Shown: positions 12,317 to 51,408, counted from the first letter of the stretch. The stretch: DNA of 64,000 nucleotides from Anaerolineales bacterium (GCA_020059485.1 JAGVCA010000036.1:6909-70908); one strand, 5' to 3'. Notes: a model not told the origin generated them from the sequence alone. Program-made: numbers and translations.

Positions 12317-12317
12317 C

Positions 12318-34003: not shown

Positions 34004-34681
34004 TTAAGACCGCCCGCACACCAGAAATGCCCCCGCCATGATCTCTAACAGAGGCAGGGCCTGATCATACACTTTCAGATCGGCGGCATCATCAAATACC
34101 AGGCTGTACGCCGAGATATTCTCACTCACCGTCAGCAGCAACGCCCCGAGCTGTACCGCCAGCAGATCGACTGCCGCCCGGTCCCCCGCATCTTCCTGCC
34201 AGCGCTGGTAGGCCGGCCGGTCCACCGGACTCCACACCGGATACTCATCTGAGATCGTATTGGCTACATGAATAACCCCGTTCAGCCGTTGACCGAAGGC
34301 ATCCACCGCTACCGGTTTCCCGCGCCAATAAGGCGTCCGCTCTACAAAGAACTTTACCGCTGGATGGGCGGTCAGCCTGAGCCGGGCATCTTCGGGGAGT
34401 GAGGCAACCGCCAAAGATACCATCTGGTCTGCGCCAACCGGCTCGACCAGCGCGACCCGCACACTCCCGTTCTCCCGGGAAAGGACCTCTCCGGCACCAT
34501 CCCGCACCAGGATGGTGGTCAGGCCGTGCTCGGCTGCCAGGACTGTATAGATCTGACTGAAAGCCCGCCACCACAGAAAGAATTTCTCCACTCCTTCCCG
34601 GCCGTCGCGCCGCGGCTTCATTCTCTCGGCTGATTCGATCATGGCATACGCCATCGGCAGCTGGCTGCGTTTGAATTTCAT
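34004..34681 (-). CDS. Hypothetical protein, possibly a degenerate Apea-like HEPN domain
   Basis: EKFFLWWRAFSQIY N-terminal helix pattern; no RxxxxH motif. Start ATG 34681 with GGAGG. Confidence 0.5.
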   Translation of the reverse strand: MKFKRSQLPMAYAMIESAERMKPRRDGREGVEKFFLWWRAFSQIYTVLAAEHGLTTILVRDGAGEVLSRENGSVRVALVEPVGADQMVSLAVASLPEDARLRLTAHPAVKFFVERTPYWRGKPVAVDAFGQRLNGVIHVANTISDEYPVWSPVDRPAYQRWQEDAGDRAAVDLLAVQLGALLLTVSENISAYSLVFDDAADLKVYDQALPLLEIMAGAFLVCGRS

Positions 34682-34767
34682 CAGAACACCTCCCGGTTTG
34701 GCCACCACCCTGATTAAAGCACGAAATCCGCCTGCGCGGATCCCGATCTCTGCCCTCTTCGCCCCGA

Positions 34768-35556
34768 TCAGCGCACGCGGCGGCGCCATTCATCCTTCAG
34801 CTGCAGCTGACTCATGCTCTGCCCTGAAGGCAGGTCGAGGAAATCGTTCATCAGCCGGTGGAACTTGTTGGGCTGGTCGAGCATCGGAAAGTGTCCGGAT
34901 TCATCGAACACGATCTGATGCGCCATACCCGGCAGATTGCCGTTGTCACCCAGGTTCGGGGCTTCGATCAGCGGGTCGCGCAGGCCGTGCACCAGCAGCG
35001 ATGCCGTGGTGGTTTGCTTGACGATCTCGGACAGGTTAATATAATTCAGCTCATCGAAGGAGGTCGCAATCGCGGCCGGATCGGTCTTGTTGGCCTCACT
35101 GCGGGCAGCCTCGCCGCCGGATTTGGTATCCACCACCCGGGCTGCCATCTCCACCGGGTCCAGCGTACCGGCCTTTTCGGCCAGCCCGCGACCGTTGGTC
35201 GGGATCGAGACCACCATCGCCCGGTCAACCACATACGCATGTTTGGAGGCAAACAGCAGCGCCACCACCGCCCCCAGACCGTGCCCCACCAGCGCCACTT
35301 TCCCGATCCCCATCGCATTCATAAACTTATCCAGCAGCACAGTCTGCTCTTCCAGAGAATAATTCACCGTTTCCTTAGCGCTTTCTCCAAAGCCCCATAG
35401 GTCAAAGGCATACGCCCGGTAATTTTGGGACGCGGCCTGCATTGCCGGGATCCAGTACCGCCAGGACCCGATCCAGGAGTGCAGAAAGATGATCGGCTTG
35501 CCCCGGCCGAGCACCTCGTAATGGACCATCTTTTCATCTATGATGATCGCGCTCAT
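34768..35556 (-). CDS. Alpha/beta hydrolase-fold protein lacking the catalytic Ser
   Basis: HSWIGS, FDLWGFGES, nucleophile elbow GHGLGA (Ser to Gly); Asp and His retained. Confidence 0.88.
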   Translation of the reverse strand: MSAIIIDEKMVHYEVLGRGKPIIFLHSWIGSWRYWIPAMQAASQNYRAYAFDLWGFGESAKETVNYSLEEQTVLLDKFMNAMGIGKVALVGHGLGAVVALLFASKHAYVVDRAMVVSIPTNGRGLAEKAGTLDPVEMAARVVDTKSGGEAARSEANKTDPAAIATSFDELNYINLSEIVKQTTTASLLVHGLRDPLIEAPNLGDNGNLPGMAHQIVFDESGHFPMLDQPNKFHRLMNDFLDLPSGQSMSQLQLKDEWRRRVR

Positions 35557-35568
35557 CCCAATCCCGTC

Positions 35569-36168
35569 TTACTTGTTGGTCCGATCCTTGTCATCCCGAT
35601 CCAGCCAGCTTGGCCGTCTCGGTGGCCATGTGCTGGCTGGTTTTTCACCGGCCGGTCTGTCGCTGGCCGTTCTGTCGCTTCCCGGCGGGGTACTCGACGG
35701 AGGGCTGGCCGGCGGATCGCCTGCCGGTGGCCTGCTGGAAATCGGGCCGCCCTGCCCTGGTTGGGGCTGAGATGAGCTGGCCGCCGCAGGTTTGCCTTTG
35801 TGCTTTTCCAGGATCTCGGCCACCTTGGCGGTCAGTTCCATCGGCGCAAAAGGCTTGAGGATATATTCCACCGCGCCCGCCTCCAGCCCGGCTGAGACCT
35901 CCGATTCCTGCCCCTTGGCGGACAGGAACACCACCGGCACCGGTTTCAGCGTATCGATCTCTTTCATCAGCCGGCAGGCCTCATACCCGGTCATGCGCGG
36001 CATGCGCACATCCATCATGATCAGGTCCGGAATGATCTCCTGGGCTTTTTCGAATGCCTCTTCACCGTTGCTGGTCGCCACCACATCATGCCCCGCAAAT
36101 CGCAGCGTCAGGGAGATCAGGTCTCGGATATCACGTTCGTCTTCTGCAATCAGAATCTTGGCCATCAT
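35569..36168 (-). CDS. Response regulator receiver with Pro/Ser-rich tail
   Basis: ILIAEDE, PDLIMMDVRMP.MTG, FLSAK, YILKPF. Confidence 0.93.
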   Translation of the reverse strand: MMAKILIAEDERDIRDLISLTLRFAGHDVVATSNGEEAFEKAQEIIPDLIMMDVRMPRMTGYEACRLMKEIDTLKPVPVVFLSAKGQESEVSAGLEAGAVEYILKPFAPMELTAKVAEILEKHKGKPAAASSSQPQPGQGGPISSRPPAGDPPASPPSSTPPGSDRTASDRPAGEKPASTWPPRRPSWLDRDDKDRTNK

Positions 36169-39100
36169 TCATCCTCTAGTCGAATGGTCTCGCGTTCATC
36201 TTCATACTGCGGTAAGGTGCAGGAGAAAGTGCTGCCCTCGCCGGGCACACCGGTGCTCCGCACCCAGATCTTTCCATTGTGCATCTCCACCAGTTCCCGC
36301 ACGATCGGCAGACCCAGCCCGGTGCCGGCAGTCGCCATCACCAGATGGTTCTCGCCGCGGTAGAAACGTTCAAAGATCTTGTCGTGCTCATCCGGGAAGA
36401 TCCCGATCCCCTGGTCGATCACATCGATCTGAACCGAATTATCCACCGGGTACAAGTTTAGTGTCACCGTGCTGTTCTCCGGCGAATATTTGCAGGCATT
36501 GTCCACCAGGTTGGTCACGATCTGGCGGACGCGCTCGGCGTCGCCATACACGCTCGGCAGGTCATCGGGGATGTCCACGACGATCTTTACTGGCCGCTGG
36601 TCATCCTCCGAGCGCTGCTGGATCACACCTAATACCTCCTCGACCACTTCATGCAGGTCGATCGGCTGCATATTGAGGGCTACCTTGCCGGCCTCGATCC
36701 TCGAGACATCCAGCAAGTCGTTCACCAGGACGCTCAGTCGGTCGATATTCGTCTTGATGACATTAACAAACTCCATCTGCTGCGGGTTCAGCTCGCCCGC
36801 CCCGCCCATAAGCAGGAACTCGACATACCCCTTGATCGGTGTCATCGGCGTGCGCAGCTCATGGCTGACCGTGGCAACGAACTCTGACTTCAATCGGTCA
36901 ACCTCCACCTGGTGGGTGATATCCCGGAAGATCGAGATCGTCCCCAGGAATTCCTGCCGGTCGGAGACCGGGGAGAGGTGGACTGACAGCACTCGCCCAT
37001 CTTCCAGATACAACCGCTCCTGGTACATCTCGGCGTCCTCGGGCTGATGCGGGCTGACCGACCATACCCGGATCGTATCCATCCAGGCCCGCGCCGCGCC
37101 GCCGAACAGGCCGACAAATTCATCCAGCGATTTACCCATGACCTGTACCCGTGCCAGGTCCAGCATCTTCTCGGCGGCAGCATTGAACAGTGTGATGACG
37201 TTCTGACTGTCGGTCACCAGCACCCCATCACCCACCCCTTCCAGCATAGCCGTCGAACGGCTGAACTCGATCTGCTGCGCTCGCAGCATATTGCCAAGAT
37301 CTTCAGCCTGGTCGCGGATCAGTTGGAACAATTCGCCGTTGTTGATCGTGACCGCGAACTGGTTGGCAGCCGCCTGGATCGGGTCTGCCAATCCATGCTT
37401 GAAATGGTTCGGCTGGCGGTGGAAGAGCATCAAACAGCCGAGCACATCCTGTCCGACGATCAGTGGAGTGGCGATCGTGCTGCGGTATACCTGGTTCAGG
37501 CCGTGTTTTTGCTGCCAGACACTATCGGTCAGCAGATCATCGATTACCAGCGGGCGTTGCTGCTTAAACAACCAACCGGCGATCCCTTCCTTCTGCGTCA
37601 ATTTGGATGCCGTCCCATCCATCGGCGGCGATTCATGGATCCCGGCGCCGGCCCGGAACAGCAAGCTCGGCGTTCCCAGCTGGGAAATGTAGATATTGCA
37701 TTGTTCTGCCCCCGCCGCCTCACACAGCATCTCCAGCGACCGGTTGAGCACCATGTTCAGGTCCAGGCTGGAAGACAGCTCTGAACTGATCTTCAGCAGG
37801 ATCTGGGAGAACTGGTGCTCTTCTGCCAGTTCCTGCGTACGTTCGGCCACGCGCTGCTCCAGGGCTTCGTTGACCCGCCGCGTTTCGGCATACAGCCGGG
37901 CATTTTCCAGCGCCAGGGCAGTCTGCTGAGCGAGGGACTCGATCAGCGCCTGGTCCTCGGCGGTAAAGGCCGCCGCGGTGTTGAAGTTATCCAGCTCGAT
38001 CACGCCCTCCACCTGGTCAGGTGATTTGATCGGGATCAGCAGCATCGATACTGGCAGCCGGCCTCCGGTGGCCTCACGGTATTTCAGCAGGTTATCGGGA
38101 GAAAGATCGAAATCAGTGGCAAAGTCCACCTCGGCGATATTCAGCGTCTCGCCTTTTTGGAACACCCGGCCGATCACCGAGGTATTCATGCGGTGATTGA
38201 TCTCCGTCAGGCGCTCGTTATCATTGTAACCAGCGGCGGCTTCCGTCCGCAGCAGCGCTTCTTCTTCATGCCACATCACCACCCGGACGCCGTGAGCGTG
38301 CGGCAGTACTCGCCGCACCGACCCGACCAACGTATTCAGGTTTTCATTCGGATCCAGGCTGCCCAACTGGCGGCTGAAGTCCAGCAGCAGATTGACTTCC
38401 CGCAGGCGGCGGCGTGTCTCGGTCAGCAGGGTCAGATTTTGCAGTGTCAGCGAAACCTGAGATGAGATCAACTCATAGACCTGCTCATCTTCCAGGGTGA
38501 CATCTCCCAGCGGCACTGTCGAGATCGCCAGCAAAGCGGCATCAACCTTGCCATTCGAAGAGATTGGCAGGGAGATAAACCCGCGCGCACCCAGAGTCTT
38601 CAGCAGCGGCGAATTGCGCCACTCACGGCTGTCCTCCAGGTTGGGCACAAACACCATCTGCCCGCTGTGCAGTGTCTCCCGCAGCGGGTTGCGCTGCCCA
38701 AGCAACGCGCTCGGGTTGGCGTTTGGCGGCATCGGCCCAAACTGCCCGACCAACTGTAAACCGGTTCCGGCCGGTTCAGCCACCAATGCAATATCGAGCT
38801 CCATCTCGGTCAGCATCTGGCTCGCCACCGAGTGCAGCACGGATTGTCGGTCGGGCTGGCGGTTGACATTCTCGGCAATGCCCAGGCCGATCCGGATATT
38901 GCGCGACCGGCGATACAGTTGCTGCAACGCCAGGGTTTGCTCCAGATCCTTTTGCAGCAGGGTAGTTAGCTGCGGGAACTGCTGGGCGGCCAATGCCTCT
39001 GCCTCAGCCTGGCGGATGCGGGTCTCAACCTGGTCGATCTGCTGCCGCAATTCAGCCACTTTGGCGCTCCGCTCCATCACCAGCCCAACATCGGCTGCAA

Positions 39101-42100
39101 ACAATTCCAACATCTCCAGGCGGAGATCCGAAGGGATCATACCGTCCACCGGCACATCCAGCGCGATCAACCCCAGCGGCTGACCATGCCCGTCAGAGAC
39201 CGGCATCAACAACTGGGTACCAGGGATCCAGGCCTCTTCGGTATCCAGCGGAACGGTGAAATCAAACTGCAGGTGCTTTGGCACCAGCGAAAATTGCGCC
39301 TGGCTCTGGTCGTGCGGCACCAGATAAGAACGGCTACGTTGATATTCAGGCAGGATCAACTGCTGGATATTTTCCCAGGGATGGCTGATCTCCGAGACCA
39401 CCTCTGCGTCTGATTTGCTGAAACCCTGCATGGCCGCCGGTTCCAGCATCCGGTACTGCCGGTCATATCTGTAGATCAGCACGACCTCAAACTGGCTGAT
39501 CTGCTGGATGGCATCGGCGAGCAGGTCCAGCGCTTTATCCAGGGGAAGATCCGGCGAAAGTTGCTTGCGGGTCAGGAGCAGGTGGTTGAGCGCTTCGGCC
39601 TGATCACTCAGCAACGAGGTGCGTCGGATAGCCTGCTGGTAGTCCCAGATATTGGAGAGCGCTACCCCGGCCTGCGAGGTCAGGGCCTGGATCAAGTCCT
39701 GGATCGTGGTGTCAAAATGGTCCTTCCGGCGTGAGAACAGGCGCAACACCCCGACAACGTGGCCAAACTTGGTGATCGGTAAGAACATTCCGCTGGCCAT
39801 GCCGTCCACATCCGGCGAAAAAGCATGATTGGCAAAATTATTGACAATCATCGTTTCTTTATGGGTTGCGGCGTGGATATCAAGAGCGGTGATGGTCGGC
39901 GGTGTTATGCCCACCCGCTCCTGGATGATCACCGGGGTCGAGTTGGTGAACTCGTACTGAAAAACCATGATTCCGCCGCTGTCCGCCCCGCTGATCCTCA
40001 TCGCCTCGTTGTGAATGACTCTGAGCAGATTCTCGACATTGTCGGTCACGGCGAACTGGCGGGCTAGCCGGTGAATGGCGCCCATCTCATCGGCGCGTCG
40101 CTGCAGGGTTTCATCGGTCTGGTCGGCCATGCTGGCGCGTTCGACAGAGATCGCCACCTGACTGGCCGCGGTCTCCAGGGTCTGGTAATCGTTCTGGTCG
40201 AACTGGCCGCGGTGCTCACTCCCAACCAGCACTTCCCCCACTCCCCGGCCTCGCACCACCATTGGCACCACCATCAACGAATGGATGTTCGGCAGCATCG
40301 GCTGCAAAGCCCGGTACGGCAGTGGCAGTTCAGCCTCTTCCGGCATATCTTCGCTAAAGAGCGGCTGCAGCGTCTCGGTGACGGTATTCCGGATATTGGC
40401 CTGGGTCGCCAGATGCAGGGAGATCTGACCAATCTTCTCCGGCGCAATCCCAACCGCTGAGCGTTCATGCAGCTGAAGCGTGCCGAGCGTATTGTCCAGC
40501 AGGAAGATCGCCGCCATATCTGCCTGCAGAAAGCGGCTCAACTCCAGCAGGGAGAACTGCAGGGATTCATCGACCGTGGCTTCCGACCCGGCCAGGCTGG
40601 CGATCCGCCGCAGGGCCTCGGCTCGCTGGGCGCGCCGTCGGGCCTGATGGATCAGGTTGGCATTCTCCAGGATCGGGGATACCTGTCCGGCAATGATCCG
40701 CATCAACCGCAGGTCATCCTCATTGAAGCGGGCGCCATCCAACTTGTTGGCGGCCTGTAAATAGCCGAGGCTGCGGCCGGCACTAGTCAGCGGGACCAGC
40801 ACGGTCTCGCGCATGGCACTGGCCTGGGCCAAGGGCGACAGCCCCAGAGCGCCCATCAGCGAATCCGGACCCATATCATCGGTGATGATCACATCACCTT
40901 CCAGCCAGACCCGCTCTCCCGGGCTTTCCGGTTCGATCGTGGTCCGGTAAAGTTCAATAAACGGCTCCGGCAGCCCGTGGAACGGGATCTGGCCTTCCAG
41001 TGAGCGGGTTTGCTCATCGTAGATCAGGAAGCCAAGGATCTCTGCCTCGACCAGCGGAGAGATCGTCTCCAGGATCTGGCCGTACAGCACTTGGGCCGAG
41101 GATGCCGAGCGGCTAACCTGAGCCAGTTCAGCCAGGCCGGCCATCTCCCGGATGCGGAGTTTTTCCTTATTGTGGATGAAGGCATTCTGCAGCGCCACAG
41201 CGGCATGTCCCGAGAGCAGGTCCAGCACTTCCCTGTCCTGATCGGTGAAGGCATCCACACTCTGGGAGGCCAGCTCGATCGTGCCGATCAGCATCCCTCC
41301 AATGCGGAGCGGAATACCCAGGTACGAGCGGATCGGGAACTGCCCCCGGCTAACGGCCGGGCGGGCATCCTGGAATTCAACCACATCCCGCACCAGCAGA
41401 GCTTCACTGCGCGAGGACAGATACCCGGTGTACCCTTTATCCAGTGTGTAATTGACCGCCACCAGGTTTAACCGCCGAATGCCGTCCTCTTCTGTCAGGT
41501 AGCGGTAAGGGGTGAAATCGATAGTCTCGGTATTGAACAGGTTGATCTCCGAGAAATCGGAGGGGATCAACTTTTCAATGCTCTCCAGAATGGTCTCGAT
41601 GGTCGTTTCAAGTTCCAGGCTGGCCGACATCGCCTGACTGATCTCATTGAAGATCGTGACCGCAAAACTGGAAAGCGTATCCTGGCCTTCCTCCGTCCCG
41701 CCAAGATGCGGCCGTTTCAGTGTCACCAGCACCGCCGCCGATTCCTGGTAAGGTACAGCATACGAGACCCCTTCCACCAGGTTGTGGTCCAGATTGAAAC
41801 GGGTCTGCCCCTCACCAGCGCACAGACTGAAGAACGCATCTGCCGGCCGGATGCGGCGAGCCATTCGTTCCAGGTTGGGGTTCTCATTGACAGAAAGACC
41901 AAACCACTCCCGGGCCAGCGGGTTCAGATAGACCACGCGGCCACCGCGCATCACCAGCAAGGTGGCACTCTCATTGACCGGCAGGTTTGGGTCCACCACC
42001 GGCTGCATGTCCTCGCTCACAACCTTGCCTGACCGCCGAGGCAGCCGGCGCAAGGCCAACGGAATGATCCCCAGCAAGCCTATGCCCACCAGGACCAATA

Positions 42101-42140: not shown

Positions 42141-43106
42141 CTACTTCCGCAGTCGTCTCCAGATGGATGTTTTTTCTGGTTTGTTCTCCTCTTTCCGGGC
42201 CGGTTTTTCTGAACCGGTCTGCATCTCCTTGCGCCGTTCTTCTGCCGCCAGTTCGGTGATCTGGCGGATATCGGCGATCGGGAATTCGCCCGGAGTGACC
42301 ACGCCGATCGCGACCGTCATCAGCCCGGTCTGCTCCTGCTCGCCGTCGCCGCTGACCGTTTCGATATAACCGCGCTCACGGTCGATGAAGTTGTAGTGCG
42401 AGAGCACCTGTTCTCTGAAACGGGTCTTGATGCCCTCCTCGATCCGGTCCTGATTCCCATCGGTCGTGATGACCACGAAATTATTGCCGCCGGGATGTCC
42501 GATAAAGTCATCCGGGGACCCTAGTTCATCCACCACCTCACTCAGCAGCAGGGTTGTAAAGCGGATCACATTATCGGCAGCCACAAAGCCGTATACATCC
42601 GCGAACGGTTCAAAATGATTGATCCGGATATCTAGGTATGCCCAGCCCTCCCGGCGGATGATCTGCCGCAACTGGTCTTCGATCAGGCGGCCGGATGGCA
42701 GCCCCGAACGTGGGTCGGTCAGACTTTCGCGCTCGGCCCTGGCGATCGCGTTCTGCACCCTCAGGCGCAGTTCCTCGACATCGAACGGCTTGGTGACATA
42801 GTCGTCCGCGCCCAGTTCCAGGCCCTGCAGCTTGTCGCTGCGTTCATCCTTCTGTGTCAGGAAGATCACCGGGATATGGCTGGTACGGGTGCTGGTGCGC
42901 AGCTGGCGGCAGACCTCATACCCGTCAATATCCGGCAGCATGATATCCAGCACGATCAGGTGCGGCAGGTTTTGCCGGGTCATCTCCAGGGCAGCGCTGC
43001 CCCGGCCAGCCACATCCACCTCAAAACCCTGCCCCCCGAAGTAGATCTTCAACATGTTGGCAATATCGAAATCGTCTTCTACCACCAAAATCCTTGCTTT
43101 TCCCAT
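42141..43106 (-). CDS. Response regulator with degenerate GGDEF domain
   Basis: REC domain (VEDD, LDIMLP, KPF), DPRSGLP, GHPGGNNF in place of GGDEF. Confidence 0.9.
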   Translation of the reverse strand: MGKARILVVEDDFDIANMLKIYFGGQGFEVDVAGRGSAALEMTRQNLPHLIVLDIMLPDIDGYEVCRQLRTSTRTSHIPVIFLTQKDERSDKLQGLELGADDYVTKPFDVEELRLRVQNAIARAERESLTDPRSGLPSGRLIEDQLRQIIRREGWAYLDIRINHFEPFADVYGFVAADNVIRFTTLLLSEVVDELGSPDDFIGHPGGNNFVVITTDGNQDRIEEGIKTRFREQVLSHYNFIDRERGYIETVSGDGEQEQTGLMTVAIGVVTPGEFPIADIRQITELAAEERRKEMQTGSEKPARKEENKPEKTSIWRRLRK

Positions 43107-43121
43107 ACGGCCCTCCAAATA

Positions 43122-44219
43122 CTAGGATGATTGCAGGACAGCCTGTGCACGCAGCCTGGTCCGGTCGATCTGCTCCACGCTGAGGCTCTTCTCAAATGAA
43201 CGGTATCCGCTCAACCTGAACCCGTGTCGCTCCGCAATTGTATCAATTTCCTCCACCTGGCTGAGGGACAGCGCTTTCCCCAGGGTGTAATCCTCAAAAC
43301 GACCCTCCAGGGTCAGGGCGATTGTCTCAGCCTTGCAGGCATAGGCTTTCCCCGTGGGAAAACCGAAATCAAAATGAAAATCTGGCATCCCGGGCACATC
43401 CACGATCCCGCCGTCGATCACCAGCACATCACTTCGGCTGGCGGCCACGTCAGCCGAGACATCCCGCGGCCGGGAGACATCGCATACCACCGCGCCAGGC
43501 CGCAAATGCCTGGAATGGATGATCGTCTCGGTATCGCTGGTCACGGTCAGGATCAGGTTGGCTTTCCGCACATCGTCCACATTCACGGACGGGTGCAGCC
43601 GGGCCCGCGGCCGGCCGCGTTCGATCTCTGCCGCCGTTCGTTCGGTCTTCTCCCAGTCACGCCCGATCAAATACAGATCGGCGACCTTGCCGGCCAGCAG
43701 CTGCGCACACACCTTGCCGATCGCACCTGTCGCTCCGACCACGGCCGCGCTGGCCTGACCGGGTTCAATGTGCATCTCAGCCGCCGCCCGCAGCACGGCT
43801 CTGATCGCGGTCGCCACTGTGTACGAATCCCCGGTCGTCACCGGAATCTCTAACCGCTCGGCGATCGTGATGCCGGCATCCCCGACCACTGAGGTGAACG
43901 CCCCCAGACCGAGCATCCTGGCGCCCAGTTTCTGCGCCATCCGGCCGGTTTGCACGATCTTGTCGTACACCACCGGGACCGGCAGCTGCAGCATCCGACG
44001 CGGGGTGTACGGGCAGGCCACAAACCATCCCTTGACCTCCTTGCCGGTCGCCGCCGACCGGATCCCGGTGATCTCGGAGATATACACCGGAGGGAAGTAG
44101 GTCGAGAAAAAGTCGATCTGCCGGGCGGTCAGCACGCGCCCCAGCAGCGGGAACTTGCGTTCCACATCCCGCTTGGGGTCGATCGGGTGAATGATAAAGG
44201 CAAAGGTATCCATCATCAC
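43122..44219 (-). CDS. Acyl-ACP reductase-like / shikimate-dehydrogenase-like NAD(P)-dependent oxidoreductase
   Basis: FAFIIHP, LGAFTSVV, TTGDSYT, VVGATGAIG, DVSRPRDV, YACKAET (Cys at the position of the AAR catalytic Cys). Confidence 0.75.
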   Translation of the reverse strand: MMMDTFAFIIHPIDPKRDVERKFPLLGRVLTARQIDFFSTYFPPVYISEITGIRSAATGKEVKGWFVACPYTPRRMLQLPVPVVYDKIVQTGRMAQKLGARMLGLGAFTSVVGDAGITIAERLEIPVTTGDSYTVATAIRAVLRAAAEMHIEPGQASAAVVGATGAIGKVCAQLLAGKVADLYLIGRDWEKTERTAAEIERGRPRARLHPSVNVDDVRKANLILTVTSDTETIIHSRHLRPGAVVCDVSRPRDVSADVAASRSDVLVIDGGIVDVPGMPDFHFDFGFPTGKAYACKAETIALTLEGRFEDYTLGKALSLSQVEEIDTIAERHGFRLSGYRSFEKSLSVEQIDRTRLRAQAVLQSS

Positions 44220-45514
44220 CAGGTATCCACTTGGCGCCGGTCGGTGGCGTACAGCTGGCGGTGCAGCTCAGCCGCCGTCAGCTCATGATGATCGCTCTGT
44301 TCGAATTTGACATTCTTGTTAATGACCCGGCGGGAATCAGAGGCCACGATGACCACATCCGATTCGATCGTCCTGGCAGGATGGATGATCACCCCGGCGC
44401 CGATCCGGCAATTGTGTCCCACGCAGCTTCCGAGCACATCCTGCTTGATCTCCCGCAGTTCGCCATTCCCGTCCAGCGCACGCAGCGGCTTGGGCAGCAG
44501 GTTGAAATCGGTGAATGTATTCCCGGCGCCGATGAAGGTATTCCGGCCGATCACGCACATCTGCAGGCAGGTATTTTGGGCCACCATACTGTTTTCCATC
44601 AGTGTGGTCATGAACAGCGCAGCCCGGAACGGCAGGAACGCGCCATCCCCGACCACCGAGAGCATCAACTGGCAGCCCTGCGAAATATTGACATTGTCTC
44701 CGATGACACAGTTCTCGATCACCGTGCCTGCCCCAATGGTCACATTGTTGCCGATGGTGGTTGGGCCGTGGATCACCGCCGTCGGGTCGATCACACAGTT
44801 GCTGCCCACTTCCACCACCCGGGCAGATTCCAGCAGTTGCTTGCCCTGATACATGGCATTGAAGAACACCTGGAGCTTGAATTTCAGGTCACTGTCCAGA
44901 CGCTGTTCAAAACGGGCACCGCGGCCGAACAGACCAAAGACCACATCGGCGACAAAGATATGCACCCACGAATCGATCGCCAGGAAAGCCTTCAGAGGCA
45001 CCTGGTAGGTCAGGTCTCCCTGCTGCGAGGCCATGTAGCTCGGGACGTGGTAATACCCGATCTCGCGGGCTTCCAGGTCGATGATCAGCGGTTCTGGCTC
45101 TTCGTGCGTCGGTCCGTCAGGGAAATACCACAGGTCGGCCAGATACAGCCCGCCGCCCGGCGTATAGGAGGTCGAAAGCGGCAAGGCGTGCTCGCGGAAG
45201 GCCGCATCGGTCGGCAGGAAGGCCGCCCGCGAAGGTTTTTGGCGAGCCTTGGCCTGCTGCAGGAATTCTTCAATATAGATCCGGTCAAAATACAGGTTGT
45301 CGCGGTACACAATACACGCTCTGTCCCCCTCGCGCGGCAGGGTGATCGGGGAGAAGATATCCTCCCAGGCATCCACCTGCCTTTCGCCGTCCACATACGG
45401 GGACAGCAGGTCGCGGTGATGCAGCCAGAGCGGCTTGTTCAGGATTCGCAGGTCCCGGGCATAGTCATTGAACGGGGACAGGTATCGGTGATCTCTCAGG
45501 CTAATTCTGATCAT
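44216..45514 (-). CDS. Hexapeptide-repeat (left-handed beta-helix) protein, GlmU-like architecture
   Basis: LRILNKPL N-terminus; VGSNCVIDPTAVIHGPTTIGNNVTIGAGTVIENCVIGDNV repeats. Confidence 0.8.
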   Translation of the reverse strand: MIRISLRDHRYLSPFNDYARDLRILNKPLWLHHRDLLSPYVDGERQVDAWEDIFSPITLPREGDRACIVYRDNLYFDRIYIEEFLQQAKARQKPSRAAFLPTDAAFREHALPLSTSYTPGGGLYLADLWYFPDGPTHEEPEPLIIDLEAREIGYYHVPSYMASQQGDLTYQVPLKAFLAIDSWVHIFVADVVFGLFGRGARFEQRLDSDLKFKLQVFFNAMYQGKQLLESARVVEVGSNCVIDPTAVIHGPTTIGNNVTIGAGTVIENCVIGDNVNISQGCQLMLSVVGDGAFLPFRAALFMTTLMENSMVAQNTCLQMCVIGRNTFIGAGNTFTDFNLLPKPLRALDGNGELREIKQDVLGSCVGHNCRIGAGVIIHPARTIESDVVIVASDSRRVINKNVKFEQSDHHELTAAELHRQLYATDRRQVDTW

Positions 45515-45677
45515 ACTGTTCTCTTTGCATGTAGCATGCCGAATTTGCAGACCGACTGCCCATCATCGGTCTGCTCTGATTTGAGTATACCTGCCATTCA
45601 TGCCGACAATATGATAATTTCAGGATAGTTCCAAATCACCCCTCAGACGCTCTATCGCCCCCCGGTTCAGCGCCTGG

Positions 45678-47672
45678 TTAAGCCTCCGGCTCCGCGCCCT
45701 GTTGGGCCGCCGGCTCATCGCCCGGCTCCCCGGCCGACTCCCCGGCCGGTTCAGCATCCCGCAGCATCGAATGGATGTGGTACGGGACATCGATCACCAC
45801 GACATCCTGGTATTGGCGCAGACTGGCGCGCAGACGCCGGGCTGTCTGGTTATGCAGGAAGCCGGCCGCCTCGGTCTCCGGGATGAATTCCGGCACCACG
45901 ATCGTGGTCAGCTGGCCGGAGAATTCCTGGGCGCTGATCTTGGCAATATACTCCACCAACGGAGCCAGCACATCCCGGTAATCGTACTCGATCAACACCA
46001 GCATCAAGTCCGAAGTGATCTCGGGGAAGCGGTTCCAGCGGCGCATGAAACGCTCCTCCGCCTCCGGCGATGTGATGATCGTCAGCACGCGCACATCCCG
46101 CGAGATCCGCTTGGCGTACGAGATCGCCTGGATCGAACCGCGGTGAATATCAGCGATCGGCACAAAGACCACATCCGCCACCTTGGTCACATTCTCATCG
46201 GACAGGCCGGTGGTGCTGAGCGAATCCGCCACCCGCTCGTAGTGCCGGTGGATGGCATTGAAACCGATCACCATCAAGGGGATCAACAGCACCACCACCC
46301 AGGCCCCTTCCAGAAACTTGGTAAACACCAGAATAATGAAGACCACGAAAGTGACCACTGCGCCAAGGGCATTGAAAGCCTGTTTCAGCCGAGCGCTCTT
46401 CTCATAATGGATCACGGTGACGTTGGTATGAATTGACTCTCCTGGTTTGAGATGCGCGATCTTTCCCATCAGCAGGAACATGCCGGATTGCGATAAACTG
46501 AAGCTTAGCATCACGCCCAGGGCATACAGCGGCAGCATGGCGATCTCGTCCGCCTGGAAGATGATCACCAGCAGCGAGGAAAGGGCTGCCAGTACCAAGA
46601 TCCCGGAACTGAACACCAGCCGGTCGCCGCGGTTCTGCATCCAGCGCGGTAAAAAACTATCTTTAGCAAGAAAAGAGCCCAGACGAGGGAAGTCCTGGTA
46701 GCCGGTATTGGCCGCCAGGAACAGGATCATGGCGGTGAAGAACTGCACCCAGTAATACATAAAGCCGCGGCCGGTGATCTGGCGCGTCATCTGCGAGAGG
46801 ATGCTCTCAGCTTCATCCGGTACCAGCGAGAGATGGGTTGCCAGGAAGGTGATCCCGATGAACAACGACATCGCCATCAGGCCCATTGCCACCATCGTGA
46901 TGGCCGCATTTTTGGATTCCGGCGGCTTGAAAGCCTGCACGCCGTTGCTGATCGCCTCGATCCCGGTCAGGGCTGTACAGCCACCGGCGAATGCCCGCAG
47001 CAGCAGCCAGATGTAGGCGAATCCAGCCAACTGCGCGTGGGCAGCCACCTGCTCGGCTTCGATCACGATCGGCGCAGCCCCAAACCAGCCAAAATAGCGC
47101 ACCAGCCCGATCAGAATGACGACCAGCACGCCGGCGACAAAGGCATAGGTCGGAATAGCAAATACCGTTCCGGATTCCCGGACGCCACGAAGGTTCACCC
47201 AGGTGATGATCAGGATCGCACCCAGCGCAATCCACACCCGCAGATCGAACAATTCAGGAAAAGCCGAAGTAACCGCCCGCACGCCGGCGGAAACCGAGAC
47301 CGAGACGGTCAGGATGTAGTCAGTCAGCAGGGCCGCAGCCGCGATCAGGGCCGGCTTGGTTCCCAGATTGTCTTTGGCAACCGTGTACGCGCCGCCGCCA
47401 TCCGGATAGTGCAGGATCGTCTGGATATAACTTGAAACCACCAGCAGCACCAGGCCGGCGACTGCCAGGCCGAGCGGCAGGGTCAGCGACAGAGCGCCAC
47501 TGCCCAGCACGATCAGCACGCTCATGATCGCCTCGGTGGCATAAGCATTGCTCGAGATCGGGTCGGAGGCGAACACCGCCAGCGCCCGCACCTTGTCCAG
47601 CCGCTCGTGCAATTCCTGGCTGGTCGGGAACGGATCGCCGATCAGTAATTTCTTGATGTCTGAAAATCCCAT
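45678..47672 (-). CDS. kimA: APC-family permease, KimA/YdaO-like K+ transporter
   Basis: LAVFASDPISSNAYATE, YPDGGGAYTVAKDNLG, DYILTVSVSV, NLRGVRESG, GCTALTGIEAISNGV.AFKPP, FLHNQTA..L. Confidence 0.85.
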   Translation of the reverse strand: MGFSDIKKLLIGDPFPTSQELHERLDKVRALAVFASDPISSNAYATEAIMSVLIVLGSGALSLTLPLGLAVAGLVLLVVSSYIQTILHYPDGGGAYTVAKDNLGTKPALIAAAALLTDYILTVSVSVSAGVRAVTSAFPELFDLRVWIALGAILIITWVNLRGVRESGTVFAIPTYAFVAGVLVVILIGLVRYFGWFGAAPIVIEAEQVAAHAQLAGFAYIWLLLRAFAGGCTALTGIEAISNGVQAFKPPESKNAAITMVAMGLMAMSLFIGITFLATHLSLVPDEAESILSQMTRQITGRGFMYYWVQFFTAMILFLAANTGYQDFPRLGSFLAKDSFLPRWMQNRGDRLVFSSGILVLAALSSLLVIIFQADEIAMLPLYALGVMLSFSLSQSGMFLLMGKIAHLKPGESIHTNVTVIHYEKSARLKQAFNALGAVVTFVVFIILVFTKFLEGAWVVVLLIPLMVIGFNAIHRHYERVADSLSTTGLSDENVTKVADVVFVPIADIHRGSIQAISYAKRISRDVRVLTIITSPEAEERFMRRWNRFPEITSDLMLVLIEYDYRDVLAPLVEYIAKISAQEFSGQLTTIVVPEFIPETEAAGFLHNQTARRLRASLRQYQDVVVIDVPYHIHSMLRDAEPAGESAGEPGDEPAAQQGAEPEA

Positions 47673-47696
47673 ACTGTTTTCCTGTTCAAAACTGCT

Positions 47697-47786
47697 AAAA
47701 AATAAAAACGCCAGACACCAAGTGAAAATGGCATGCCCGACGGCTCCACAACCAACGCATTATAGTCCTGTTTATTGGGTTGTCAA
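47697..47786 (-). promoter_or_regulatory. Promoter plus short leader with intrinsic terminator (attenuator or candidate riboswitch) of kimA
   Basis: TTGACA(47786-47781)-16 nt-TATAAT(47764-47759); hairpin 47742-47709 followed by TTTTTATTTTTT before the start codon. Confidence 0.7.
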
Positions 47787-47917
47787 TCGACAACTATGCA
47801 AACTCATCTGGGGCTTACCTGGTGGACACACCTAACATACCTCGGATATCCCGACGATATGGCATTGCGATCGAGACGCTGCCAGGCGTCGAAAGAAGCA
47901 ATCTCTCTATTCAGGAA

Positions 47918-48697
47918 CTAATTCGCCAGGAAATCCTGCACGACGGAAATGAACGTCTCTGGGTCGTCCAGCATCGGGAAGTGACCGGCATCCGGCAGAT
48001 ACACCACCACCGGCTGGCTGGCATACTCCTCCACCAACTTGTGCTGGTTGGGATTGACGATCACATCTTTGCGGCCGTAGATGCCCAGCAGCGGGACCTC
48101 GATCTTGTGCAGGTCTTGCCGCAGGTCGGTATAACGCAGCGATTTGATGCTCAGGAGGAAGGACTCCAGCGTGGTCTGCGAAAGGTCGGCGGCGATCATC
48201 TCCGGCCAGCGTTTGTCCCTGGTCACCAGCGGCCAGCCGATGCGGATGCCCAGGTTGAGCGCCCACAGGCTGTTGTGCACCACCGCCGCCACCAGTTTCA
48301 TCCCGGCCAATTTGAGCAGGAAAGCCAGCGAATCCCCCACCACCGGCGAACCGATCACACCGGCCTTGGTCACCCGCTCCGGGTGTTGGATGGCAAACGA
48401 CATCGTCACCGTCCCGCCCATGCTGTGGCCGATGATCGGCGCTTGCTCGATGCCCAGCTGGTCCATGAATTGTGCCACCAGACTGACAAAATCGCTGATA
48501 TTGTAGGTCTCGCGCTTCTTGCCAGACTCGCCAAACCCCCAGAAATCCAGCGCATAGGTGCGGTAGTGCTGCAAGCCTTTCATCGTATCCTGCCACAGAT
48601 ACCACGAGCCTAGCCAGCCATGCAGCAGGATTACCGGCTGGCCGCGGCCATACACTTCATAATGAACGATCCCCTGGTCGGTTGTGATAGTAGACAC
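47918..48697 (-). CDS. Alpha/beta hydrolase with intact Ser-Asp-His triad
   Basis: HGWLGS, GHSMGG, GRKDVIV, AGHFPM; paralog of 34768..35556. Confidence 0.92.
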   Translation of the reverse strand: MSTITTDQGIVHYEVYGRGQPVILLHGWLGSWYLWQDTMKGLQHYRTYALDFWGFGESGKKRETYNISDFVSLVAQFMDQLGIEQAPIIGHSMGGTVTMSFAIQHPERVTKAGVIGSPVVGDSLAFLLKLAGMKLVAAVVHNSLWALNLGIRIGWPLVTRDKRWPEMIAADLSQTTLESFLLSIKSLRYTDLRQDLHKIEVPLLGIYGRKDVIVNPNQHKLVEEYASQPVVVYLPDAGHFPMLDDPETFISVVQDFLAN

Positions 48698-48734
48698 GGC
48701 CTGGCTGTCCTTCCCTCCTGCGCTCGGATCCCGG

Positions 48735-49268
48735 TTATTTGCTGATCTCGCGCATAATGATCTGCAGCAGTTCGATCAGTACGGTTTTCACCGATTCCTT
48801 GTCCCGGGCCACTGCTGGCAGCAGCGGGATATTTTTGTCCAGCCGCAGGGCGATCCGCATATCCTCCACGTCCCAGGCATCCGGTTTGTCCTGCTTGTTG
48901 GCGGCCACCACATACGGCGTCGGCGCATACGCCCGGAAGGTCTCCAGGATCGTGCGGGCCTCGCGAAAGGTCTCCGGCCTGGTGCTGTCCACCATCACAA
49001 TAAATCCCAGCATCCCTTCCGAGAGGATCTCCCACATGAAGTCAAAACGTTTCTGACCGGGCGTCCCAAAAAGGTACAGTACCAGTTCGTCGTCCACCGT
49101 GATGCGCCCAAAATCCATCGCCACCGTGGTCGATTCCTTGATCTTTTCCGCCTCGGCAGTGATCTTGCGTTCAGTGGAGACCACATCAATCTCGCTGACC
49201 GTCTGGATGAACTCGGTCTTGCCTGAGTTGAATGGTCCGGTAACCACCATTTTGACTGTTTGCATCAT
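48735..49268 (-). CDS. MglA/CvnD-like small GTPase
   Basis: GPFNSGKT, TTVAMDFG, LFGTPGQKRFDFMW, NKQD. Confidence 0.92.
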   Translation of the reverse strand: MMQTVKMVVTGPFNSGKTEFIQTVSEIDVVSTERKITAEAEKIKESTTVAMDFGRITVDDELVLYLFGTPGQKRFDFMWEILSEGMLGFIVMVDSTRPETFREARTILETFRAYAPTPYVVAANKQDKPDAWDVEDMRIALRLDKNIPLLPAVARDKESVKTVLIELLQIIMREISK

Positions 49269-49290
49269 GAATATTCCTTCAATGATTTCA

Positions 49291-50112
49291 TTATAATGAT
49301 CTGATCCGCCCGATCAACCGGTTGACCAGGTTCTTTTGCTCTTCCTTGCTCTTGCCGGCCAGGGTCTGTTCCAGACCCGGCAGGCTTTGTTCGATGCCTT
49401 CCGGCCGCACCAGTTCCACCAGCCCGGCTTGCAGCAGACTATAAACCACGCGGCGGATCTCCAGGTCGGACATCCGCGAGGCTTTGGCGATCTGCCTGAT
49501 GGAGTTTTTGGGGTTGATATAGGAGACGACCTTCCATTCCTCCACGCTCATATTCAGCTTCTGAATATTCACGCCCGGGCGGTCGGTGAACTTCAGCGCC
49601 AGGTCCAGGTTGGGCAGCTCGTCCTGCAGCTGCTCCCACTCCCGCAGGCGGCGCGAGCCTTCGATGATGATGTTCTCCAGATCCATGCGGATTGGGATCC
49701 GGTCGGGGGGCAAGGCTTCGCCGTTATTAAAATAGAACTGGCCTTCATCCCAATTAAACAGCCGCTGCAGGATATCGAGGAAATGGTTCTGCAGGCTGGT
49801 GATCACATCCCGCTGGGTGACATGGCCGGAATTGATCAGCAGCAATCCCAGTTCTTTGTCGCTGATATTGCCAGCGCGCTGGCTGATGGTCCTGTACTGG
49901 GCCGGGGTGAGCACATTGGCCTTGTGCAGGATCGCCCCCAAACGGCTGTCCTCATTGCTGATCTCGGCGTAAGCCAGTTTGCCCTCCCGGAAAGTGATCC
50001 GTGCGGCCTGGCTGGCGCTCTCCACCACAAGCGTCCCGGTCTTTTTGGCAAGGTTGACCAGGTTAAGTAGTTGTGTGATGGTGAAATCTCTTAAATTGCC
50101 CTTCAGCGCCAT
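49291..50112 (-). CDS. DUF4388 (PatA-N-like) domain protein with C-terminal winged helix
   Basis: MALKGNLRDFTITQLLNLV..AKKTGTL, LFNWDEGQFYF, IIIEGSRRL.EW. Confidence 0.88.
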   Translation of the reverse strand: MALKGNLRDFTITQLLNLVNLAKKTGTLVVESASQAARITFREGKLAYAEISNEDSRLGAILHKANVLTPAQYRTISQRAGNISDKELGLLLINSGHVTQRDVITSLQNHFLDILQRLFNWDEGQFYFNNGEALPPDRIPIRMDLENIIIEGSRRLREWEQLQDELPNLDLALKFTDRPGVNIQKLNMSVEEWKVVSYINPKNSIRQIAKASRMSDLEIRRVVYSLLQAGLVELVRPEGIEQSLPGLEQTLAGKSKEEQKNLVNRLIGRIRSL

Positions 50113-50219
50113 AGAAAATCTCTTTGCAGTCGAAATGATTGATAAAAAATTATACTGTAAAACAAACTATCCCGCCTTTTAGGAACATGGGTCAGAGTTT
50201 ACAGCTTTGTTGGGCAGTC

Positions 50220-51404: not shown

Positions 51405-51408
51405 CGGT

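Follow-up and report, generated by a model that had tools for sequence, protein, structure and literature searches.

A conserved gene cluster of filamentous Chloroflexota that joins a PATAN–GTPase pair to enzyme-like proteins and a giant GAF-domain kinase, a candidate arm of a small-GTPase signalling system

The window analysed here, a 64,000-nt stretch of an Anaerolineales bacterium genome, contains a block of ten open reading frames (ORFs), all on the minus strand. Family assignments with Pfam and NCBIfam give, in order, a DUF4388/PATAN protein, a small Ras-like GTPase, an alpha/beta hydrolase (ABH1), a KimA-type K+ transporter, a hexapeptide-repeat protein (HEX), an AAR/PigE-N-like reductase, a response regulator with REC and degenerate GGDEF domains, a histidine kinase, a single-domain REC response regulator, and a second alpha/beta hydrolase (ABH2). 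Intergenic spacing, computed from longest-ORF coordinates, is very tight over the six genes from 45514 to 34768: the HEX and reductase genes overlap by 4 nt, 3 nt separate the reductase from the REC-GGDEF gene, which directly abuts the kinase gene (0 nt), the kinase and single-domain REC genes again overlap by 4 nt, and 12 nt precede ABH2. The gaps on the two sides of kimA measure 245 nt (upstream) and 163 nt. A preliminary description of this DNA had already given this gene order and close packing, a promoter belonging to kimA, a degenerate GGDEF motif, a kinase of 1991 aa with about eight GAF domains, and paralogous hydrolases, one of them dead; all of these features were recovered in our analysis.

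The first gene (49291-50112, minus strand) encodes a 273-aa PATAN protein (PF14332, E 7.5e-29) whose AlphaFold model (pLDDT 81.4) comprises a PATAN domain with a helical insert, a winged helix at residues ~161-239, and a conserved C-terminal helix at ~256-272; helix-turn-helix matches to its C-terminus were all below threshold. It lies immediately upstream of the GTPase gene (48735-49268, minus strand) at every GTPase-holding locus surveyed. The GTPase matches ATP_bind_1 (E 5e-19), Ras (E 6e-10), and Arf in Pfam, as well as TIGR00231 (42.7 bits for a cut-off of 42.5), carries the P-loop GPFNSGKT and the NKQD motif of a Ras-like G domain, and has MglA (6hjh, E 1.3e-8) as its nearest solved structure. 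Orthologues are present in 38 of 41 relatives, with 75-91% identity, and the G3 motif FGTPGQ is invariant across 38 aligned sequences. The ‘TDRT’ of MglA aligns to ‘ESTT’, Thr replacing the intrinsic Arg finger, and this Ser/Thr position, together with GTPGQ where Group 1 MglA has TVPGQ, sets it apart from MglA/MglB Group 1. In Anaerolinea thermophila, ANT_06780 (179 aa) is tabulated as ‘MglA Group 5, <MglA<PATAN’ in the accessible part of PMC4316618, and PATAN-adjacent GTPase orthologues of 179 aa in MAGs labelled Anaerolinea share 79-81% identity with the one studied here. Sequence comparison thus places this GTPase in the MglA family, within the Groups 2-5 type, and makes it a putative Group 5 member by its neighbourhood and by orthology to ANT_06780, the gene catalogued for Anaerolinea.

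The preliminary description had proposed modelling the complex of these two proteins. With GTP and Mg included, the PATAN–GTPase model reached an ipSAE of 0.77 (0.75, 0.79, and 0.77 in the separate runs), against 0.00 for the best of three controls. Of 157 solved complexes, 116 attain the mark used for this score, as do 2 of 215 mismatched pairs; these counts apply only roughly here, since the model was built from our own alignments and included the ligands. The runs had at least 76% of contacts in common, with partner pLDDT of at least 82, and a Foldseek search of the PATAN protein against solved structures found nothing similar at E ≤ 0.001, so that the score is unlikely to reflect a memorised structure. 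In the modelled interface, PATAN residues 3-22 and 251-273 contact GTPase residues 55-63, 97-101, 131-139, and 156-175, and the PATAN C-terminal helix is predicted to occupy the alpha5/beta2-beta3 pocket, the same one that receives the C-terminal helix of MglB on MglA (alpha5, beta2, and the beta2-beta3 loop, according to the part of PMC6785124 available to us). Compared with that system as it appears in the same source, the putative pocket-binding helix would belong here to the PATAN protein and not to a Roadblock protein, and its residues (NRLIGRIRSL) make it basic, unlike the acidic helix of MglB.

Several of the remaining proteins resemble enzymes. Cross-hits at 30-36% identity identify ABH1 (47918-48697, minus strand; Abhydrolase_1, E 4e-29) and ABH2 (34768-35556, minus strand) as paralogues. 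The nucleophile elbow GHSMGG of ABH1 is found in 72/72 orthologues and its Asp and His columns are kept in 15/15, so ABH1 retains an intact Ser-Asp-His triad. In ABH2 the elbow reads GHGLGA and the nucleophile Ser is replaced by Gly, Ala, or Val in all 29 orthologues; we therefore reject ABH2 as a catalytic alpha/beta hydrolase and refer to it as a pseudo-hydrolase. It is also the last gene of the block, and the earlier argument that the two hydrolases, by flanking kimA, tie the halves together is not supported. HEX (44216-45514, minus strand; 432 aa), a hexapeptide/left-handed beta-helix (LbH) protein with a mean column identity of 73% over 44 orthologues, matches only Hexapep in Pfam, NTP_transferase giving no match at E ≤ 0.01. 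The model of its N-terminal domain (pLDDT ~90) resembles ST0452 (5z09_E; Foldseek E 4e-6; VIA Z 16.2, rmsd 6.2, 293 residues aligned) and GlmU (Z ~12.5). The NTP_transferase signature is a Gly-rich G-x-G-T-R loop; the HEX N-terminus, ISLRDHRYLSPFNDYARDLR, in which P14-F15 is invariant and N16 nearly so, lacks the Gly-rich loop. HEX is thus predicted, from its model, to combine a GlmU/ST0452-type nucleotidyltransferase fold with degenerate signature and a left-handed beta-helix. The following gene (43122-44219, minus strand) encodes a putative AAR/PigE-N-like NAD(P)-dependent thioester reductase (4ppm, E 4.4e-33; AAR 6jzq, E 1.7e-22) whose catalytic Cys is aligned and is present in 58/58 sequences, with a conserved GxTGxIG motif. 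Its scores for TIGR04058 (95.9 bits, cut-off 449.7) and NF053554 (197, cut-off 850) lie under the cut-offs, which excludes equivalog membership. Of 71 informative loci, 53 carry the gene, and three others (L027, L028, and L036) also lack it, which makes it an optional member of the cluster. Among the ten ORFs, Pfam and NCBIfam detected no ACP, ketosynthase, ligase, or other acyl-chain-forming or -activating family. The label ‘lipid-modifying enzymes’ given to these genes in the preliminary description was too strong, considering the fold of HEX and the optional reductase.

The 1991-aa histidine kinase (36165-42140, minus strand) has eight GAF domains, a PAS, HisKA, and HATPase_c according to Pfam, with an N-terminal hydrophobic segment at residues ~8-30 and the H-box HELRTP at residue 1760; its orthologues range from 1596 to 2500 aa. 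The preceding REC-GGDEF protein (42141-43118, minus strand; REC E 2e-29, GGDEF E 7e-8) shows GGNNF in place of GGDEF. The fourth-position Glu of GG(D/E)EF is essential to diguanylate cyclases. Among 77 aligned sequences, 56 have GGDNF and none has GGDEF, GGEEF, or a fourth-position Glu; with the motif absent, a role as diguanylate cyclase is rejected. Its phospho-acceptor context, LDIMLP, is kept in 77/77, as is the phospho-acceptor Asp of the single-domain REC protein (35569-36168, minus strand; REC E 1.5e-27) in 62/62 (MDVRMP and variants). The Pro/Ser-rich tail of the latter is specific to this genome, most orthologues measuring 124-130 aa.

KimA (45678-47672, minus strand) is similar to its Bacillus subtilis homolog over its full length (6s3k_B, E 5.6e-121, residues 4-633 of 664). 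A sigma-70-type promoter identical to consensus at 12/12 positions (TTGACA-16-TATAAT, 47786-47759, minus strand) lies in the 245-nt gap ~85 nt before kimA. The total of promoter-like sites in the region (7, for 6.7 expected) is not above chance. Only one of 62 informative HEX-anchored loci carries kimA at this site, and within the genus it is found here only in this genome and in one other, two further genomes having the junction without it. It occupies the position where most relatives have a V4R gene, which has been lost in this lineage. We conclude that kimA stands outside the system and was recently inserted, along with a promoter of its own, at the lost V4R site. That such an insertion is tolerated implies that co-transcription of the two halves is not required here.

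Across 80 HEX-anchored loci the canonical order is PATAN-GTPase-ABH1-V4R-HEX-(AAR)-REC/dead-GGDEF-kinase-REC-ABH2, with less than 90 nt between tblastn matches in canonical loci (e.g., L137). PATAN and GTPase are present in 57 of the 62 HEX-anchored loci informative upstream and the kinase in 51 of the 54 informative downstream. The two halves lie next to each other in 41/46 HEX-anchored loci informative on both sides and in 11/17 GTPase-anchored loci, although much of this synteny could be inherited, as related genomes are not independent. The preliminary description held that its proposal would fail if the halves were never adjacent, and had asked whether the block is contiguous without kimA; these counts answer both points, and its view of a conserved, co-localised signalling system is borne out by the neighbourhood survey. 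The linkage also outlasts rearrangement: in L113 the kinase pair is inverted yet still adjacent, and in L130, from another class, a GAF kinase and a response regulator are followed by PATAN, GTPase, three Roadblock genes, V4R, HEX, and ABH1. This is a real gene cluster, kept in filamentous Chloroflexota, in which a GTPase switch and its PATAN protein are joined to enzyme-like proteins and a giant kinase. Only the first two genes had been catalogued; we found no published description of the cluster beyond the PATAN–GTPase pair, so that ‘undescribed’, as the preliminary description had it, holds for the cluster but not for the pair, listed under Group 5 in the accessible part of PMC4316618.

No Roadblock gene was found within the window, as previously noticed, and a ‘coupled’ MglB within four genes of the GTPase is likewise absent there. 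A partner nevertheless exists elsewhere in the genome: its sole PF03259 match, on contig C36, heads a trio Roadblock-V4R-REC/dead-GGDEF. Because the genome is 70% complete, the single PATAN, GTPase, and Roadblock genes that we count in it may be undercounts. The V4R and REC/dead-GGDEF proteins of the trio are paralogues of cluster members, the two REC/dead-GGDEF proteins sharing 36% identity. The C36 Roadblock protein (139 aa, Pfam match at 26-114 followed by ~25 residues) matches CvnB5 (3leq, E 2.9e-9) more closely in sequence than it does MglB (E 0.0075). Its orthologues adjoin the cluster in four loci: the whole trio sits immediately upstream of PATAN in L085 and L095, an orthologue with 70% identity comes after the GTPase in L129, and L130 is described above. 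In 301 genomes surveyed across the phylum, Roadblock was found in 55 and a GTPase match in 58, all 55 Roadblock holders being GTPase-positive; in one family with eight sampled genomes, the only match-bearing genome was the same for both. For A. thermophila, ANT_03760 is given as an orphan MglB in the accessible table of PMC4316618. Linkage and co-occurrence indicate that the GTPase system has a Roadblock partner, putatively the C36 protein, whose gene lies outside the block.

Judged from gene content, conservation, the state of the motifs, the genomic linkage of Roadblock, and the predicted complex, the block is probably one arm of a multi-protein small-GTPase signalling system of Anaerolineae, with a core also present in other Chloroflexota classes. 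The core switch would pair the Group 5-type GTPase with the PATAN/winged-helix protein, the latter clamping, in the model, the GTPase face away from the nucleotide by placing its N-terminal strand-helix and its C-terminal helix on the allosteric pocket, which would keep the switch face open to a Roadblock-type GAP. Roadblock would be supplied in trans from C36, together with V4R and REC/dead-GGDEF. Input most likely comes from the kinase, presumably membrane-anchored through its N-terminus, which may phosphorylate both the single-domain REC and the REC/dead-GGDEF proteins. RomR and FrzX/FrzZ act on MglA, and by analogy the phosphorylated regulators could gate the GTPase cycle. ABH1, V4R, HEX, the AAR-like reductase, and ABH2 may be accessory subunits that handle small molecules or act as scaffolds.

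It is unlikely that the block comprises two unrelated, uncoupled units that are neighbours by descent only, namely one operon with PATAN-GTPase(-ABH1-V4R-HEX) and another of the ordinary two-component kind. The halves are separable: two Thermanaerothrix-type loci keep the front genes with no kinase within 10 kb, five loci have HEX and the following genes without PATAN-GTPase upstream, 6/17 GTPase-anchored loci are minimal PATAN-GTPase loci lacking the kinase, other classes mostly retain the pair alone (eight loci), and in this genome the block is interrupted by kimA and its separate promoter. However, the prevalent adjacency, its survival after inversion in L113, and the different arrangement in which a GAF-kinase/response regulator pair adjoins PATAN-GTPase in L130 argue for coupling, and the REC/dead-GGDEF and V4R paralogues in the Roadblock trio link two-component parts to a GTPase regulator.

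Two further readings of the output and input of the GTPase system deserve attention. In the model of the preliminary description, the enzymes might produce or convert an acyl or aldehyde ligand, which would be of a self-made, DSF/Rpf-like kind; the GAF array or the dead hydrolase would sense it and relay it to the GTPase. The invariant reductase Cys with its NAD(P) motif, the conserved ABH1 triad, the receptor-like, nucleophile-less ABH2, and the small hydrophobic ligands that V4R domains bind (available part of PMC10933270) are consistent with this idea, which we nonetheless regard as very unlikely given that 18 of the 71 informative loci lack the reductase, this lineage no longer has V4R, an NTP_transferase signature was not detected in HEX, and acyl-chain-forming or -activating families were not found among the ten ORFs. 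The preliminary description had named polarity or gliding as a possible output. A Myxococcus-like polarity module, placing the type IV pili with which the filament would twitch or glide, appears highly improbable. The GTPase does belong to the MglA family and its orthologue is limited to a subset of families (58/301 genomes), and PilB1, the pilus motor, is a binding partner of PATAN regulators in Synechocystis, PATAN genes also adjoining mglA/mglB (bioRxiv 10.1101/2021.06.11.447907, in the part available). Yet PilT (TIGR01420) scores above cut-off in 43/301 genomes but in only one of the 58 GTPase-positive ones, the best PilT-family match of this genome (E 4e-14) is far under the cut-off, and the GTPase lacks the intrinsic Arg finger that Group 1 MglA has. 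A PilT-type type IV pilus output is thus not supported and is disfavoured.

The favoured reading, a multi-protein small-GTPase system, can be compared with several known ones. Group 5 MglA with a PATAN neighbour shares with it GTPGQ, Thr for the G2 Arg finger, and PATAN upstream; Group 5 neighbourhoods ‘vary widely’ and the pair alone is recorded (Wuichet and Sogaard-Andersen 2014, PMC4316618), the accessible part of that work describing neither the linked ABH1, V4R, HEX, reductase, REC/dead-GGDEF, GAF kinase, REC, and ABH2 nor the pairing of an orphan MglB with V4R and REC/dead-GGDEF. Conservons, as presented in the parts of PMC13343842, PMC13621833, PMC11343762, and PMC4316618 available to us, contain a kinase (CvnA), a Roadblock protein (CvnB), a DUF742 protein (CvnC), and a GTPase (CvnD), and the CvnC-type DUF742 protein MfpC is a GEF (first three sources). 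The Anaerolineae system similarly has a histidine kinase, Roadblock, a helix-turn-helix-like adaptor, and a Groups 2-5-type GTPase, but the place of DUF742 (PF05331, no match at E ≤ 0.01 in the ten proteins or in the 70% complete genome) is taken by the PATAN/winged-helix protein. It also differs from the conservons of Actinomycetota, to judge from the same partial sources, in its multi-GAF kinase, its two response regulators in the block (conservons have none, PMC4316618), its Roadblock in a separate locus, and its phylum, Chloroflexota. With MglA/MglB/RomR of M. xanthus it shares a Ras-like GTPase, a Roadblock regulator, and REC-domain inputs (available part of PMC6785124), whereas both the Arg finger and the PilT association are absent here.

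V4R is a prokaryotic relative of TRAPPC3/Bet3 (PMC2253512 and PMC10933270, in the parts available). TRAPP and GATOR1-Ragulator, multi-subunit GTPase regulators of eukaryotes, consist of Roadblock/longin, Bet3 (V4R-fold), and winged-helix parts. In the Anaerolineae system, V4R and Roadblock genes occur as a pair with linkage to a Ras-like GTPase gene, and the PATAN winged helix scores best with GATOR1/SEA-complex chains (8fw5_C, Z 10.3; 8adl_S, Z 9.7; generic winged helices ~Z 6), a likeness at the level of fold only, with weak global scores (Foldseek E 3e-3, TM 0.24). It is quite unlikely, though worth stating, that this system represents the bacterial equivalent of such eukaryotic assemblies. 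Roadblock, V4R, and PATAN/winged-helix proteins would then come together on the GTPase to form a composite platform with GAP and GEF roles, ligands would gate two of the subunits, namely the pseudo-nucleotidyltransferase/LbH protein and the pseudo-hydrolase, and the phosphorelay would set the assembly state; if true, this would provide a tractable prokaryotic model for the origin of TRAPP- or Ragulator-type assemblies. The nucleotidyltransferase/LbH domain pair also occurs in eIF2B gamma/epsilon and in GMPPA.

Contig C60, from which the window is taken, belongs to a 2.2-Mb metagenome-assembled genome (MAG) that is 70% complete. Open reading frames (ORFs) and Pfam/NCBIfam searches bear out the ten minus-strand genes of the preliminary description, in both their coordinates and their domains. 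In transcription order, they encode a PATAN (DUF4388) protein (49291-50112), a small GTPase (48735-49268), the alpha/beta hydrolase ABH1 (47918-48697), KimA (45678-47672; matching the solved B. subtilis KimA at E 5.6e-121), the hexapeptide-repeat (LbH) protein HEX (44216-45514), an AAR/PigE-N-like reductase (AAR, acyl-ACP-reductase-like enzyme; 43122-44219), a REC protein with a degenerate GGDEF domain (REC/dGGDEF; 42141-43118), a 1991-aa kinase with eight GAF stretches, PAS, HisKA, and HATPase domains (36165-42140), a single-domain REC protein (35569-36168), and the paralogous hydrolase ABH2 (34768-35556). The six rear genes are as tightly packed as had been described, with overlaps or gaps of 0-12 nt. 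A query for sequencing runs over 42000-50200 returned none, RNA included. A 261-aa ORF (34004-34789, minus strand) overlaps the 3' end of ABH2 by 22 nt, occupies the 814-nt gap before an NBR1-Ig gene, and has a weak DUF6519 match (22.3 bits). We rejected it as a member of the system since none of the fetched loci has a counterpart; a homologue occurs in one of five congeners, with 43% identity and at a different site, and the ORF is probably an inserted gene. Upstream of the block, minus-strand genes (50220-54656) encode a THUMP-like methyltransferase, an amine oxidase-type flavoprotein, an LPG_synthase_TM protein, and a patatin-like phospholipase, the first three of which also lie upstream of the block in the congener G001.

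Of 41 relatives from the same order, 38 have a GTPase orthologue, with 75-91% identity. A HEX profile search retrieved at least 596 species-level contigs carrying HEX, from which the best 80 loci were kept; being the most similar to the query, they tilt the sample towards close relatives. Their labels are of Anaerolineae, Chloroflexota, or Chloroflexia type, including one 'uncultured Chloroflexus sp.', and the carriers among them include Levilinea saccharolytica, Ornatilinea apprima, and Thermanaerothrix solaris. The canonical order in these 80 loci is PATAN, GTPase, ABH1, V4R, HEX, (AAR), REC/dGGDEF, GAF kinase, REC, and ABH2. PATAN and GTPase occur together in 57 of the 62 loci with informative upstream sequence, as does ABH1 (57), with V4R in 52 and KimA in one. 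Of the 71 loci that extend 3 kb or more downstream, 68 have REC/dGGDEF and 53 have AAR; of the 54 that extend 9.9 kb or more, 51 have the kinase, 48 REC, and 43 ABH2. One relative (locus L030, genome G032) has two REC/dGGDEF genes in tandem within the block (12024-12842 and 11110-12027).

The preliminary description had joined the front half of the block (PATAN-GTPase-ABH1) and the rear half (HEX through ABH2, with the kinase) into one system, and the idea that they are never adjacent fails because they stand together in most informative loci. Both halves are present in 41 of the 46 HEX loci informative on both sides, and the PATAN-GTPase pair and the kinase in 11 of 17 GTPase-anchored loci (20 were fetched, of which 17 extended 15 kb or more downstream and were counted). 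The six kinase-less GTPase-anchored loci (L024, L025, L026, L029, L031, and L038) are minimal forms, for example PATAN-GTPase-REC or PATAN-GTPase-x-HEX-ABH2. The halves might instead be two unrelated units, neighbours only by descent and devoid of functional coupling, as would suit the absence of the kinase from L053 and L055 and of the front genes from L057, L100, L104, L108, and L121. As related genomes are not independent, we give greater weight to rearranged loci. The kinase pair of L113 is inverted yet still next to the block, and L130, which belongs to a different class of the phylum, has the order REC-GAF-kinase, REC-LuxR, PATAN, GTPase, Roadblock, Roadblock, V4R, HEX, ABH1, and Roadblock (Roadblock being the MglB-type family PF03259). 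The full ten-gene order is found in L133, from another order of the same class; loci from other classes (L123-L128, L134, and L135) have mostly the PATAN-GTPase pair only, with GTPase identities of 62-66%.

KimA lies between ABH1 and HEX, at the place of the V4R gene in most relatives, and within the genus it occupies this site only in our genome and in G001; we conclude that it was inserted recently and does not belong to the system. The kimA gene is spaced 245 and 163 nt from its neighbours and, as proposed, has its own promoter, a 12/12 sigma-70 consensus ~85 nt upstream. No riboswitch was detected before it, as no Rfam family reached the gathering score within 30000-56000. The V4R gene has been lost from the ABH1-HEX site in the closest clade (L044-L046, L048-L050, and L052); the junction is a 1.1-kb gap devoid of long ORFs in G002, and ABH1 is directly joined to HEX in G005. 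In three congeneric MAGs (G003, G004, and G007; loci L004, L006, and L010) the contigs stop less than ~800 nt downstream of ABH1, which suggests that this junction is variable or repeat-bearing in the genus. Between kimA and HEX there is also an 8-bp hairpin, CAGACCGA ... TCGGTCTG (45545-45575, minus strand), which has no T-run and was not called in a terminator scan. G001 (L022/L043) has its kinase gene, its AAR-like gene, and kimA each fragmented into several ORFs, which may reflect assembly indels or decay.

The closest solved structure to the GTPase is MglA (E 1.3e-8). The sequence, with a mean column identity of 84% over 38 orthologues, contains GTPGQ and a Thr at the Arg-finger position of Group 1 MglA, both marks of MglA Groups 2-5 in a published classification (PMC4316618). 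Its supplementary file 3 places a 179-aa gene adjacent to PATAN in Anaerolinea thermophila in Group 5 and treats an MglB of that species as an orphan. The PATAN protein model (pLDDT 81.4) had no Foldseek match at E ≤ 0.001 when searched whole, the top matches being weak ones to chains from GATOR1 and SEA-complex entries (E 3e-3, TM 0.24). Residues 161-239 form a winged helix (VIA-align) that best matches GATOR1/SEA-complex chains (Z 10.3, rmsd 2.2, 73 aligned; and Z 9.7), generic winged helices scoring about Z 6. A DUF742/CvnC-like nature of the C-terminus was rejected, as Pfam gave only sub-threshold HTH_9, MarR_2, and TrmB matches. The GTPase/DUF4388 complex, for which the preliminary description had suggested structure prediction, was modelled with GTP and Mg alongside three controls. 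It obtained an ipSAE of 0.77 (runs 0.75, 0.79, and 0.77), against 0.00 for the best control, with at least 76% of contacts in common among runs and partner pLDDT of at least 82. Of 157 solved complexes, 116 reached the ipSAE mark, as did 2 of 215 mismatched pairs; these counts hold only roughly here because custom alignments and ligands were included. The prediction supports PATAN-GTPase binding through PATAN residues 3-22 and 251-273 (a conserved C-terminal helix) and GTPase residues 55-63 (beta2-beta3 hairpin), 97-101, 131-139, and 156-175 (alpha5). This modelled site on the GTPase coincides with the pocket that receives the MglB Ct-helix in M. xanthus and controls nucleotide exchange (PMC6785124).

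The absence of a Roadblock gene from the block, noted in the preliminary description, stands, but the genome does contain one PF03259 gene, on contig C36. There, the Roadblock (139 aa) is followed by a V4R protein (211 aa), a REC/dead-GGDEF protein (292 aa), and a GT2 glycosyltransferase. The V4R protein shares ~50% identity with the V4R that relatives carry within the cluster, and the REC/dead-GGDEF protein aligns over its full length with that of the block (36% identity, E 2e-67). Roadblock and V4R genes are repeatedly neighbours across the order; in L085 and L095, the Roadblock-V4R-REC/dGGDEF trio immediately precedes PATAN on that gene's strand, in L129 an orthologous Roadblock (70% identity) follows the GTPase, and in L130 Roadblock genes are inside the cluster. 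We surveyed 301 genomes from the phylum with a completeness of 85% or more (E ≤ 1e-30 for the GTPase, ≤ 1e-20 for Roadblock): 58 have a GTPase match and 55 a C36-type Roadblock, all 55 also holding the GTPase. The three GTPase-only genomes have distant matches (40-43% identity), and in family f15 (eight genomes sampled) the single positive, G258, is the same for both proteins. In our 70% complete genome, where DUF742 was not found, the single PATAN gene forms a 1:1:1 set with the GTPase and Roadblock genes. In sequence, the C36 Roadblock resembles CvnB5 (E 2.9e-9) more closely than MglB (E 0.0075). A sequence search of solved structures gave no significant match for V4R (2osd, E 0.94). Prokaryotic V4R proteins are described as relatives of the TRAPP subunit Bet3 in PMC2253512 and PMC10933270, and the accessible part of Podar et al. 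2008 mentions neither the GTPase nor Roadblock nor operons. One relative carries an array of seven V4R paralogues in tandem (G034:C6:51983-57912).

Several of the enzyme-like proteins have altered motifs. The HEX model (pLDDT ~90 for the N-domain, the LbH part being less certain) has the fold of ST0452/GlmU-type bifunctional sugar-1-phosphate nucleotidyltransferases (Foldseek E 4e-6; Z 16.2). It has no Pfam NTP_transferase match, and a conserved SPFN stretch occupies what we take to be the position of the Gly-rich loop. The ABH1 triad is kept in 72/72 sequences, ABH2 lacks the nucleophile Ser in 29/29, and GGDEF, changed to GGDNF or GGNNF, is canonical in none of 77 aligned sequences. Both regulators keep their REC phospho-acceptor motifs (77/77 and 62/62), and the AAR-like reductase keeps its Cys (58/58) and NAD(P) motif. 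The kinase, whose orthologues span 1596-2500 aa, has an N-terminal hydrophobic segment and the H-box HELRTP. The single-domain REC protein bears a Pro/Ser-rich tail of ~70 aa, most orthologues being 124-130 aa long, and this tail is a genome-specific low-complexity extension. The Atlas includes HEX-like clusters (score 0.98) in which Myxococcota is the commonest phylum.

Bacterial Ras-like GTPases are known mainly from Myxococcus polarity and, lately, from the actinobacterial conservons. The Anaerolineae system is a third, widespread design, in which a GTPase and a PATAN adaptor are joined with a detached Roadblock-V4R arm, with pseudo-enzymes, and with a giant GAF kinase. We propose that the PATAN protein would bind the allosteric face of a G-protein switch on which Roadblock, together with V4R, might act in trans as the GAP, and that a phosphorelay from the GAF kinase to the two REC proteins could provide the input; ABH1, V4R, HEX, the reductase, and ABH2 would be accessory ligand-handling or scaffold proteins. 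The system makes it possible to test whether the PATAN domain acts by binding the GTPase directly at the allosteric pocket, what prokaryotic V4R proteins do, and whether a phosphorelay feeds into a G-protein switch. Anaerolineae are abundant filamentous bacteria of digesters and sediments, and the system offers an entry to their cell biology for which the cultured carriers Levilinea, Ornatilinea, and Thermanaerothrix are usable. The PATAN-MglA pairing was already catalogued (PMC4316618), and DUF4388, GTPase, MhpC, and glmU are listed without comment as neighbours of a nitrite reductase gene in A. thermolimosa (PMC8756737); our literature searches found no description of a larger system beyond that pairing.

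As to the output, a link to type IV pili, with PilT as marker, is unsupported: PilT exceeds the cut-off in 43 of the 301 genomes but in only one of the 58 GTPase holders, which makes a twitching-pilus output unlikely. An envelope-glycan output is a lead only, suggested by the GT2 gene that follows the Roadblock trio and by HEX having a sugar-nucleotide fold.
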